A DNA stretch of 64,000 bases from an uncultured Eubacteriales bacterium (GCA_964514305.1 CAZEQD010000001.1:27181-91180); one strand, 5' to 3'; counted from the stretch's first letter, positions 25,304-52,307 are shown. Made by a program: numbers and translations. The notes: a model not told the origin generated them from the sequence alone.

Positions 25304-26110
25304 ATGGCATTTGTAAATTTTGTTACCAAGAATTTAGCCATCAAGATTGTCTATTATGGACCTGGGTTGAGCGGCAAAACCACCAATCTCCGCTATATTT
25401 ATTCCAAATTAGATCCTGACTCTCGCGCCGATTTAATTTGTTTGGAAACTGATACCGAAAGGACAATTTTTTTTGATTTACTACCTGTTAAGGCAGGGCT
25501 TATTGGCGATTTTAAAGTTCATTTTCAGTTAATGACCGTACCTGGACAGGTATTTTATGAGGCTTCCAGGAAGAGTGTTCTTAAAGGAGCCGATGGAATT
25601 GTTTTTGTAGCTGATTCCCAAGTGCCTCTCCTCGATGCCAATCTTGAGAACTTTGATAGTCTCAGGAGAAACTTGCTGGAACACAATATTGATTTGAATT
25701 TTATTCCTCTTGTTTTCCAGTATAATAAAAGAGATTTAGATAATTTAATTCCGGTAGAAACATTTAACAATCTTCTTAATCCTCGGAATTTTCCCTATGT
25801 TGAATCTGCGGCAATTTATGGGCAGGGAGTTATTGAGACCTTAAAAGAGATTTCTAAACTAACTGTGCCTGCAGTTAGAGAGAAAATATTTGGCAAGAAA
25901 AAGGAAGAAGTAAAGCCCAAAGAAAAAGTAAAGATGGAAGAAGAAAAAATCGAAGTTATGGAGCCAGCCTCTAAGAAAGAAGTTGAATTGGCCGCAGCCC
26001 AGAAGACTGCGCCTCTGCGGATGACGAAGATAAAATTTAAATCTCAGAAGGATATTGAGGAAGAATTAGAAAAACTGGCCAAAGAATTTATAGCTAAGGA
26101 TAAAAATTAA
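25304..26110 (+). CDS. mglA: MglA-family Ras-like small GTPase with ~70-aa Lys/Glu-rich C-terminal extension
   Basis: KIVYYGPGLSGKTTNLRYIY...TERTIFFDLLP...QLMTVPGQVFYEASRK..GADGIVFVADSQ...QYNKRDL is a near collinear match to Myxococcus MglA (P-loop, switch regions, NKxD). A C-terminal KEEVKPKEKVKMEEEKIEV... tail is appended. Confidence 0.85.
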   Translation: MAFVNFVTKNLAIKIVYYGPGLSGKTTNLRYIYSKLDPDSRADLICLETDTERTIFFDLLPVKAGLIGDFKVHFQLMTVPGQVFYEASRKSVLKGADGIVFVADSQVPLLDANLENFDSLRRNLLEHNIDLNFIPLVFQYNKRDLDNLIPVETFNNLLNPRNFPYVESAAIYGQGVIETLKEISKLTVPAVREKIFGKKKEEVKPKEKVKMEEEKIEVMEPASKKEVELAAAQKTAPLRMTKIKFKSQKDIEEELEKLAKEFIAKDKN

Positions 26111-26157
26111 AGCTTAAATTTTTCTCTAAGCTAAGAAGGAGGCTCTGTTACTGAATT

Positions 26158-26324
26158 GCCGGTGGGGTCAGACCTTCATAAGTTTCATAACTTTAATTTT
26201 TACAATAACTGTAATAATTTTTGTCCCCTACAAACCGACGAGATATATCAATAGAGAAGCATAATTTATGAAACTTATGAAGGTCTGACCCCGTGTATAT
26301 TACCCCACTTTTCGTTATAGAGCC
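26158..26324. repeat. Dispersed repeat element, copy 1 (perfect 27-bp inverted repeats 26164-26190 / 26266-26292 flanking a ~75-bp core, plus ~35-bp conserved tail)
   Basis: Roughly 90% identical (by eye) to 52115-52307 in the same orientation. Arms ggggtcagaccttcataagtttcataa / ttatgaaacttatgaaggtctgacccc. Confidence 0.85.
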
Positions 26325-26376
26325 AAGAAGGGGTTGACATAATTCAGCCAGATGTTCGTCTTTAAAGTAGACGAAC

Positions 26377-27897
26377 ATGCTCTTTAAAATCGCCAGTGCT
26401 TCTTTAATGGGCATCGAGGCTTATATTGTAGAGGTTGAAGTAGATATATCTTTTGGGTTGCCCAATTACATTACAGTCGGACTGCCTGATCCCTCAGTCC
26501 GGGAAGGCAGAGAAAGGGTTAAAGCGGCCTTAAAAAATTGTGGCTATGAGCTTCCCTCACGCAAAATACTCATCAATTTAGCTCCAGCTGATAGAAGGAA
26601 AGAAGGCCCGGCTTTTGATCTGCCAATTTCCCTGGGCTTTCTGGCAGGCCTTGATCTTTTTCCCTCGGCTAGATTAGGCGACTTTTTATTTCTGGGAGAA
26701 TTGGCCCTGGATGGCAGTTTGAAGCCAGTCAAAGGGGTTTTGGCGGCTACTGTTCTGGCCAAAAAAAAGGGATTTAAGGGGGTGGTCATTCCCAAAGCCA
26801 ACGAAAAGGAAGCAGCCCTGGTTGGTGGTCTTGAAATTTATGGATTAGAAAATCTAGTCCAGGTGGTTAAACTTCTTCAGCATCCAGAAGAGATGACTCC
26901 AGCCAAATATTCTCTCCGAGAACTTCTGCCAGCACCTCATTATGAAGTTGATTTTCAGGAAATAAAAGGTCAACAGCATGTAAAGCGGGCTCTGGAAGTG
27001 GCTGCGGCTGGAGCCCATAATGTCCTTCTAATTGGTCCACCTGGGGCAGGCAAGACTATGTTGGCCCGCCGCCTGCCCACTATTTTACCGCCGATGACTT
27101 TCGAGGAAATAATAGAAGTGACTCAAATTTATAGTGCTGCTGGTTTTCTGAAAGACAAATGGGCCTGGGGTGAAAGACCATTTCGGGCACCCCATCACAC
27201 CATATCTGATGCTGGCCTTATTGGTGGAGGGTTGGTTCCAAAACCAGGAGAAGTAAGTCTGGCTCATCACGGAGTTTTGTTTTTAGATGAGTTACCTGAA
27301 TTTAAAAGGCAGGTGCTTGAAGATTTACGTCAGCCGCTGGAAGATGGCCAAGTGACTGTTTCCCGGGCTCTGCTGTCAGTTACATTTCCCTGTGCATTTA
27401 TGATGATAGCCGCTATGAATCCTTATCAGGATGTTTTTGGAGGCTTTCCCTCTTCTGCAACGGATTTTCCGGAAAGCCAAAAAAGGCGTTATTATTCAAA
27501 GATTTCAGCTCCGCTCCTGGATAGAATAGATATCCAAATAGAAGTACCCAGGGTGGAATTTAGAGACATTATGGCCAGAGATGAAGGGGAGCCATCAGCT
27601 ATCATAAGAGAAAGAGTGGTTAAGGCAAGAAAAAAGCAGCTGGAAAGATTCAGAGGAAGGAAAATTTACTGTAATTCTAAAATGAGCAATCGGGATATTA
27701 AAAAATTTTGCAGGGTCGAAGAGAAAGCTAAGGACCTTTTAGCCATGGCTATTGATCGGTTGGGCTTCAGCGCTCGGGCTTACACCCGGGTACTAAAAGT
27801 GGCCAGGACTATTGCTGATTTAGAAGGCCAAGACCAGATAAGTGTGGTCCATCTTTCTGAAGCCATTCAGTATCGGATGATGGATAAGTATTTTTGA
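26377..27897 (+). CDS. yifB: YifB/ComM-family Mg-chelatase-like AAA+ ATPase
   Basis: MLFKIASASLMGIEAYIVEVEVDIS N-terminus, Lon-like domain, Walker A GPPGAGKT, MIAAMNP, C-terminal ChlI-like domain. Confidence 0.9.
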   Translation: MLFKIASASLMGIEAYIVEVEVDISFGLPNYITVGLPDPSVREGRERVKAALKNCGYELPSRKILINLAPADRRKEGPAFDLPISLGFLAGLDLFPSARLGDFLFLGELALDGSLKPVKGVLAATVLAKKKGFKGVVIPKANEKEAALVGGLEIYGLENLVQVVKLLQHPEEMTPAKYSLRELLPAPHYEVDFQEIKGQQHVKRALEVAAAGAHNVLLIGPPGAGKTMLARRLPTILPPMTFEEIIEVTQIYSAAGFLKDKWAWGERPFRAPHHTISDAGLIGGGLVPKPGEVSLAHHGVLFLDELPEFKRQVLEDLRQPLEDGQVTVSRALLSVTFPCAFMMIAAMNPYQDVFGGFPSSATDFPESQKRRYYSKISAPLLDRIDIQIEVPRVEFRDIMARDEGEPSAIIRERVVKARKKQLERFRGRKIYCNSKMSNRDIKKFCRVEEKAKDLLAMAIDRLGFSARAYTRVLKVARTIADLEGQDQISVVHLSEAIQYRMMDKYF

Positions 27898-52029: not shown

Positions 52030-52114
52030 CTCCCCTTAAATTATTAAATTTTTTTTTAAGATATCTTATTCTAATTTGTTTTTCGTCTGAAAGTCAACCT
52101 TTGTCTGTGAATTC

Positions 52115-52307
52115 CAGGTGGGGTCAGACCTTCATAAGTTTCATAACTTTAATTTTTACAATAATTGTAATAACTTTTGTCCCCTACAGACCGACGAAAT
52201 ATATCAATAGAGAAGCATAATTTATGAAACTTATGAAGGTCTGACCCCGTCTGCTGACTATTATATGTGTATATTACCCACTTTTCGTCAAAGAGCCCCT
52301 TTGTCTT
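52115..52307. repeat. Dispersed repeat element, copy 2 (27-bp perfect inverted repeats 52120-52146 / 52222-52248)
   Basis: Same element as 26158-26324, with an ~18-bp insertion in the tail. Same orientation. Confidence 0.85.

Follow-up and report, generated by a model that had tools for sequence, protein, structure and literature searches.

Repeats resembling the one described here are known from several kinds of mobile element. TIRYT or TIRtron elements are RAYT-like genes with flanking inverted repeats of consensus GGGGWSAS, and these repeats are also found singly, in dimers, or clustered (PMC3733652; Di Nocera et al. 2013). TIRYT equals TnpA_REP subclass 2.1, in which subgroup 2.1.2 has a Bac_DnaA_C domain (PMC6006769; Quentin et al. 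2018). In REPIN–RAYT systems, inverted doublets of short repeats that form long hairpins are extragenic, number tens of copies or more in lineage-specific populations, and accompany a Y1 transposase that is present once, is inherited vertically, and has the same repeat on both sides (PMC3116915, Bertels & Rainey 2011; PMC5581495, Bertels et al. 2017). Insertion sequences of the ISAlw1/ISAba12 group are ~1,040-bp DDE elements that make 9-bp target-site duplications (TSDs) (PMC6382973), IS903B has the inverted repeat GGCTTTGTTGAATAAATC and a 9-bp direct repeat (PMC10569121), and the IS903 target motif WTTYA-N9-TRAAW has 5-bp determinants that adjoin the TSD (PMC2577343). The element we describe is a chimeric, MITE- and REPIN-like one, an unusual combination of known element types and not a new kind of system. 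TIRYT-class repeats have been reported in few cultured genomes only, and we know of no characterized member of the DnaA-HTH class of TIRYT/RAYT transposases, nor of biochemistry for any TIRYT. Correia elements of Neisseria are also hairpin MITEs (~100–150 bp, with ~26-bp inverted ends) that occur in many intergenic copies near promoters, but they differ in their unrelated sequence, TA duplication, and own promoter and IHF sites.

Two copies of the repeat (A and B) were detected in the same orientation in the window, the whole 64-kb stretch of DNA that we analyzed (Table 1). An earlier, sequence-only reading had reported both, each with a perfect 27-bp inverted repeat, and this was confirmed: the arms are 30 nt long, 27 nt of them perfect, and stand on either side of a 69-nt loop. 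The arm sequence is GGGGTCAGACCTTCATAAGTTTCATAA(CTT), with the inner arms starting GGGGTCAGACC, and its 19-mer tip occurs four times within the window compared with 0.02 expected from shuffles. The copies are ~93% identical (93% over 152 nt ungapped, 97% over the 129-nt core), and they have in common the conserved tail noted in that reading, GTGTATATTACCC(C)ACTTTTCGTyAwAGAGCC, while their flanks outside the repeat are unrelated. The extents given earlier, 26158-26324 and 52115-52307, were correct for the right end of copy A, but the true limits are 26141-26324 and 52107-52297, position 52307 having taken in a 9-bp duplication. Also overlooked were an outer inverted repeat, half of it formed by the tail, the 9-bp TSDs, and a TTGAC adjoining each insertion. 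Relative to the family consensus, the 18-nt length difference between the copies is a deletion in copy A and not an insertion in copy B. Copy A is predicted to fold as one long hairpin (DNA dG -35.5 kcal/mol, z -8.6). Small minus-strand ORFs within the copies (73 and 70 aa) had been thought conserved through the repeat only; they gave no Pfam match and have only repeat-derived sequence in common, in agreement with that view, and are spurious.

Both copies are intergenic, copy A between the genes for a 268-aa Ras-like GTPase and the Mg-chelatase-like ComM/YifB, and copy B between the divergent genes for a class V fructose-1,6-bisphosphatase (fbp) and a FecR/DUF6600 protein. The earlier placement of both directly upstream of plus-strand genes holds for yifB/comM, but the promoter box beside copy B belongs to minus-strand fbp and not to the FecR-like gene. 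The closest homologs of ComM, the FBPase, and the transposase described below come from sources named Candidatus Aminicenantes or Aminicenantales, and the host is, to judge from these homologs, an uncultured Candidatus Aminicenantes bacterium. Three repeat-carrying MAGs (L001-L009, L136) are titled "uncultured Eubacteriales bacterium", and their ComM is 76% identical to that of the window; with Aminicenantes as the nearest named homologs, these titles look like placeholder taxonomy. Ahead of comM/yifB, we noted a perfect 8-bp inverted repeat (GTTCGTCT-N7-AGACGAAC, 26354-26376) that ends one base before the ATG, where no Shine–Dalgarno sequence is evident. It is kept in element-free relatives, with identical arms in L134 and L135 and a variant in L136, and may be an operator or a 5′-leader hairpin. 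The likely start codon of fbp is ATG 52023, which gives the 366 aa of all homologs and is preceded by GGGGAGG; the mechanical ORF list gave GTG 52029.

Table 1. Features of the two window copies and their insertion sites. Element limits were fixed by target-site duplications and empty sites.
Feature	Position (nt)	Strand	Remarks
Copy A, left target-site duplication TAAGAAGGA	26132-26140	+	AAGAAGG common to right duplication
Copy A, left duplication in alternative register AAGAAGGAG	26133-26141		8/9 match
Copy A, whole element, 184 bp, GGCTCT...AGAGCC	26141-26324	+	No counterpart in relatives L134, L135
Copy A, truncated left outer arm GGCTCTGTTAC and linker TGAATTGCCGGT	26141-26163	+	Matches left ends of full-length members (GGCTCTGTTACGAAAAGTGGGG...)
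Copy A, left inner arm, TIRYT/RAYT-type TIR, GGGGTCAG... = GGGGWSAS	26164-26193	+	Same sequence flanks RAYT gene (L043, L055)
Copy A, 69-nt AT-rich loop	26194-26262	+	92-98% conserved within 129-nt subfamily
Copy A, right inner arm	26263-26292	+	Arm comparison
Copy A, right outer arm (tail), 18-nt internal deletion relative to consensus	26293-26324	+	
Copy A, right target-site duplication AAGAAGGGG	26325-26333	+	
TTGACA adjoining copy A duplication, upstream of comM/yifB (ATG 26377)	26334-26339	+	Overlaps TGACATAAT, extended -10-like
fbp promoter, -10 TAGAAT	52068-52073	-	18-bp spacer from TTGACT
fbp promoter, -35 box TTGACT, adjoining copy B duplication	52092-52097	-	Promoter kept in empty allele
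Copy B, left target-site duplication CCTTTGTCT	52098-52106	+	9/9 match to 52298-52306
Copy B, whole element, 191 bp, no left outer arm, left terminus GTGAATTCCAGGT	52107-52297	+	Not in L138, L139
Copy B, left inner arm	52120-52149	+	Arm comparison
Copy B, right inner arm	52219-52248	+	Arm comparison
Copy B, complete right outer arm GTCTGCTGACTATTATATGTGTATATTACCCACTTTTCGTCAAAGAGCC	52249-52297	+	
Copy B, right target-site duplication CCTTTGTCT	52298-52306	+	

The window copies belong to a dispersed family. The arm 18-mer was found at more than 117 metagenome loci and also in three MAGs, and among the loci listed there were 85 inverted pairs, 76 to 217 nt long, and 68 single arms. Just over half of these pairs (44/85) have exactly the window's length of 129 nt and represent ~35 distinct sites (at least 35). 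Loops are 92-98% identical inside the 129-nt class and unrelated among size classes; the arm pairs of other species are often mismatched. Comparison of the 69-nt loop with the transposase gene described below, for an origin by internal deletion, revealed no similarity. In two loci, L017:9777-9905 (= L119) and L096:10613-10741, the loop is inverted with respect to the flanking outer arm and linker, opposite to all other copies; the sequences are consistent with flipping through recombination or template switching between the 30-bp arms. At L002:6156-6197, a full arm is preceded, 6 nt upstream, by a partial one (GGGGTCAGACCTTCATAAC), a tandem or clustered arrangement like that reported for TIR families.

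We also found a full-length unit sharing the 27-bp inverted repeat, in line with the mobile-element interpretation of the sequence-only reading. Two long arm pairs (L043:1691-2774 and L055:6003-7061) each enclose an ORF of 332 aa in a unit of 1,059-1,084 bp. The ORF has Y1_Tnp (PF01797, 1e-15) and Bac_DnaA_C (PF08299, 1e-7, residues 242-309) domains and scores 86.4 bits against NCBIfam NF047646 (REP-associated tyrosine transposase; cutoff 80), and HVH (HUH) and YIHLNP motifs are legible in its translation. A PDB sequence search with the transposase matched only DnaA domain IV. Homologs number more than 7,650, and most of the best 120 carry both PF08299 and PF01797. The position of the gene between lepA and tatA in L043, L055 (65% amino acid identity), and L133 suggests that it is a single, vertically inherited locus. 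Its stop and last codons lie inside its own flanking repeat (...KLMKV-stop, encoded by CTTATGAAGGTCTGA), and the opposite repeat is separated by 3-5 nt from a TTGACT box that precedes tatA (repeats at L043:1691-1720 and 2748-2774; L055:6003-7061). No RAYT gene was detected in the 64-kb window; the link to the window genome is co-occurrence in the same samples, a contig identical to the window having come from the sample that gave L043, together with contig L082, which bears both the RAYT and a 129-nt element.

We assign the transposase, with its DnaA-like HTH, to the TIRYT-type RAYTs (TnpA_REP subclass 2.1). Like TIRtrons, the family combines a Y1/HUH RAYT-like transposase of ~330 aa that has a C-terminal Bac_DnaA_C-type HTH with inverted repeats starting GGGGWSAS on both sides of the gene, a 3′ repeat that overlaps the gene end, dispersal of the repeats as singles and dimers, and an acidobacterial-type host lineage. 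Unlike TIRtrons, the window dimer is itself enclosed by another, unrelated inverted-repeat pair and has 9-bp TSDs, neither of which has been described for them. Because GGGGTCAG, at the outer tip of both arms, fits the TIR consensus GGGGWSAS, the inner hairpin is a TIR dimer, which would by analogy be functionally equivalent to a REPIN (PMC3116915). The likeness to REPIN–RAYT systems extends to the inverted doublets of a short repeat that make a long hairpin, their extragenic location in tens of copies or more, the lineage-specific doublet populations, and a vertically inherited Y1 transposase in single copy, with the repeat on either side of it. In contrast to REPINs, the arm is not itself a palindrome; as read from its sequence, a single arm has neither a usable self-hairpin nor the classical GTAG/CGTC tag. 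The stem is also much longer (27-30 bp perfect, with a 69-nt loop), and the composite form has TSDs, though simple dimers of other species mostly insert without them. The sequence-only reading had counted a match to a known REP/BIME-type family with established function as evidence against itself. This holds in part: the arms do fall in the described RAYT/TIRYT class of REP/REPIN-type repeats, but no cellular function is established.

The tail proved to be half of a second inverted-repeat pair (GGCTCT...AGAGCC) that encloses the 129-nt core in many copies. The left outer repeat reads GGCTCTrTwACrAAAAGTGGGGTwATTGATGCTTAT(GTGCCGGT), and the right one reads GTCTGCTGGCTATTATATGTATATTACCCCACTTTTyGTwAyAGAGCC. 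In 1.1 Mb of loci, practically every outer arm stood beside a 129-nt core, the only exceptions being two decayed solo ends next to newer insertions. Whole elements range from 161 to 221 bp, and a full-length copy (L040:869-1089, 221 nt) folds as a single two-tier hairpin. The outer TIR matches the ISAlw1/ISAba12-group inverted repeat (GGCTTTGTTGCACAAAG) at 13 of 17 positions and has GGCTyTGTT in common with that of IS903B, though the transposase itself was not seen. A search of the window and ~1.2 Mb of related loci for fuzzy TIR pairs 0.4-4 kb apart found no autonomous insertion sequence with the outer ends, and 3,529 GGCTyT/ArAGCC pairs scanned for 9-bp TSDs gave only family members and two A-rich chance matches. 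Viral contigs scanned with the outer TIR gave one chance match, in a giant-virus coding region, and two single arms when scanned with the inner arm.

Target-site duplications and empty sites identify both window copies as insertions. Copies whose termini can be recognized have 9-bp duplications on both sides, at least nine copies overall: they are perfect (9/9) at window copy B, L025@5380, both L040 copies, L113, and L023, and match at 8/9 positions at L025@444, L115, and L076. The duplications of copy A have AAGAAGG in common, with a 1-nt slip. In relatives without copy A (L134, L135; ComM 87% identical), the intergenic region is 75 bp long and reads ...TTTCTTT-GAGAAGGGG-TTGATATAAT..., with the 9-mer present once. 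The empty site of copy B in L138 and L139 (FBPase 96% identical) reads ...CCATAGA-AGACAAAGG-TTGACT-N18-TAGAAT..., with an intergenic length of 214 bp compared with ~419 bp in the window; megablast breakpoints fall at 52106 and 52298, and the empty-allele segments overlap by 9 nt. Both copies are thus genuine insertions, with TSDs and an empty site with one 9-mer each, and the element has what is expected of a MITE: TIRs, small size, no coding capacity, a fixed 9-bp TSD, and empty sites for both window copies. The earlier proposal of a mobile, MITE-like DNA that spreads at the DNA level is upheld.

The duplications follow the outer ends. Most simple arm dimers of related species (27/32) have no abutting direct repeat, nor does the RAYT unit, and compared with these simple dimers TSDs were found only where GGCTCT outer ends occur. 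As in MITEAba12/ISAba12 and the IS903 group (IS5 family), the element is small and non-coding, with TIRs starting GGCTyTGTT and 9-bp TSDs, and as in IS903, 5-bp target determinants adjoin the duplication (PMC2577343). Unlike that group, no parent insertion sequence was found in the loci searched, and TTGAC stands on one side only, as opposed to a palindromic WTTYA-N9-TRAAW or a mere preference for AT-richness; the interior is a RAYT-type repeat dimer instead of anonymous AT-rich DNA. Two other parentages were considered. ISL3, suggested by GGCTCTT ends, makes 8-bp TSDs and was dropped on TSD length, the IS903/ISAba12 group fitting better. The arm tip GGGGTCwGAC resembles what we take to be the start of the Tn3 inverted repeat, but a Tn3-family TIME, which has inverted repeats of ~38 bp (GGGG...TAAG) and a 5-bp duplication, was rejected, as only the first 10 nt are Tn3-IR-like and no 5-bp repeat abuts the inner arms.

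Two further observations concern the insertion sites. The independent insertions at L025:5367-5379 and window 52107-52119 have the same left terminus, GTGAATTCCrGGT, without an outer repeat and yet with perfect 9-bp TSDs; one-ended recognition, recurrent precise deletion, or a different enzyme are possible sources of this terminus. At L023:3966-4176 and L040:869-1089, targets have been re-used, with a newer copy in the same N9 and an older solo end displaced (AGAGCC-N9-[new element]-N9-TTGAC).

Adjacency to TTGAC is the most regular feature of the target. Of 31 distinct outer ends, 13 have TTGAC at a distance of exactly 9 nt, compared with 0.033 expected (P = 4e-31). At 16-18 bp downstream, -10-like hexamers are enriched (score ≥5/6 in 5/13, compared with 2.5% at random), and a co-directional ORF follows 11 of the 13 TTGAC-adjacent ends. 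Most of the TTGAC boxes beside insertions are real -35 boxes. Where an element has kept both of its ends, the motif adjoins just one of them, and this may be the left or the right. The TTGAC of comM overlaps a TGnTATAAT-like extended -10 and is not a clean -35 box, which suggests that the sequence itself is read and not promoter function. Simple arm dimers of related species, which have other loop sizes and neither outer repeat nor TSD, also lie near such boxes: in roughly half of them a TTGAC faces outward at 3-16 nt, far above chance (L004, L005, L008, L034, L042, L057, L086, L087, L090, L102, L111, L125). The repeat family as a whole is thus found close to -35 boxes, and part of this closeness may be due to selection or to the Y1 system and not to a target motif of a DDE enzyme.

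We consider it probable that both loci are insertions of a non-autonomous, two-layer chimera, a TIRYT-type dimer within outer repeats, whose latest moves were made by an IS5-family DDE transposase acting in trans. The inner layer is the 129-nt core, an inverted dimer of a 27-30-nt repeat starting GGGGTCAG, which TIRYT may bind and cleave in single-stranded DNA as in REP/REPIN–RAYT systems; such binding would explain why the arms are near-invariant across species while the loops differ. The outer layer is the inverted-repeat pair GGCTCTrTwACrAAAAGTGGGG...AGAGCC around this core, on whose ends an IS903/ISAba12-like enzyme encoded elsewhere would act, staggering its cut by 9 bp right beside a TTGAC half-site. 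Since the -35 consensus is TTGAC and insertions would survive only between genes, copies would build up exactly upstream of -35 boxes with the core promoter left intact. Membership of the family, the RAYT association, the TSDs, the empty sites, and the adjacency to TTGAC are shown; the identity of the mobilizing enzyme and the dispensability of any host function are what we infer. For the enzyme, trans-mobilization by an IS5/IS903-like enzyme follows from the IS903-group-like ends, the 9-bp TSDs, the IS903 flank determinants, and a Y1 system without TSDs. The DDE step is unproven because no such insertion sequence was found in the loci searched, a one-ended variant has perfect TSDs, and simple dimers also lie near TTGAC. 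Window copy B and L025@5380, lacking the left outer repeat, are awkward for a transposase that needs two matching ends, and the single half-site of the target contrasts with the palindromic motifs of the IS903 type.

These difficulties bear on the alternative that TIRYT alone moves the whole element, 9-bp duplication and TTGAC targeting included, with its HTH reading TTGAC or the outer arm and no DDE enzyme involved. No transposase other than TIRYT is physically linked to any portion of the element, and the DDE partner was missing from the window and ~1.2 Mb of related loci; the variant that lacks one outer end keeps perfect TSDs, simple dimers and the RAYT unit themselves lie 3-16 nt from TTGAC boxes, and the element folds as a single hairpin, a typical HUH substrate. 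We nevertheless regard this alternative as rather unlikely, for its own simple dimers and RAYT unit are those that mostly lack abutting direct repeats, and the duplications are confined to GGCTCT-ended copies whose ends look like the IS5/IS903 group, which gives 9-bp TSDs (PMC6382973, PMC10569121). Moreover, Y1/HUH transposition (IS200/IS605, REP/RAYT) is not known to duplicate its target. It is also unlikely that the transposition machinery aims the element at promoter -35 hexamers, as opposed to selection merely filtering insertions, the strongest version being that TIRYT does so itself. If it did, this would be a bacterial form of "safe-haven" integration in which the DnaA/sigma-like HTH of TIRYT would read TTGAC; on the strongest version, no HUH/Y1 transposase before TIRYT would have been shown to insert a hairpin element while duplicating 9 bp of its target.

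The same position exactly upstream of -35 boxes at many genes, together with a long and stable hairpin, could instead mark a host cis-regulatory or insulating module kept because it benefits the downstream promoter. It might block read-through, be cut by RNase III, bind a nucleoid protein, or serve as an upstream promoter element. Effects of this kind are known for the Correia and ERIC MITEs, which counts in its favor. It seems quite unlikely here, since either end may face the promoter (the AGAGCC end in copy A, the truncated end in copy B) and no constant sequence is delivered, the same promoters run without the element in close relatives, the stem is not followed by the T-run of an intrinsic terminator, and copies decay by deletions.

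A structured RNA gene or riboswitch-like leader, which the sequence-only reading had also proposed, would suit an intergenic position upstream of genes and a strong predicted fold, but is very improbable: an Rfam gathering-threshold scan of the window was empty and a permissive scan of 26000-26500 gave nothing meaningful, generic miRNA-hairpin matches being far below threshold. A tRNA/tmRNA scan of the window found none. Loops are unrelated among subfamilies, arm mismatches in other species are uncompensated, both orientations occur relative to the adjacent promoter, and TSDs and empty sites mark an insertion. The attC-like site of that reading was rejected as an integron site, the arms ending GGGGTCAG/CTGACCCC with no GTTRRRY core and no cassette array, among housekeeping genes. 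Segmental duplication, chance, or an assembly artefact, with only two copies in the window in the same orientation, is scarcely credible given unrelated flanks, an insertion upstream of comM shared by six independent assemblies, and dozens of other sites.

The chimeric reading that we favor goes beyond what is known in two respects, a Y1-type dimer inside a TIR/TSD-type MITE and an N9-TTGAC insertion rule beside promoters; the original observation by itself was of an ordinary mobile repeat. TIRYT/RAYT transposases are very common, and here an uncultured phylum provides a natural dataset in which alleles with and without the element can be compared and dozens of copies have exactly defined limits. 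Two transposition systems may share one passenger, and the N9-TTGAC rule bears on how repeats are tolerated in compact genomes and on promoter annotation in uncultured lineages.
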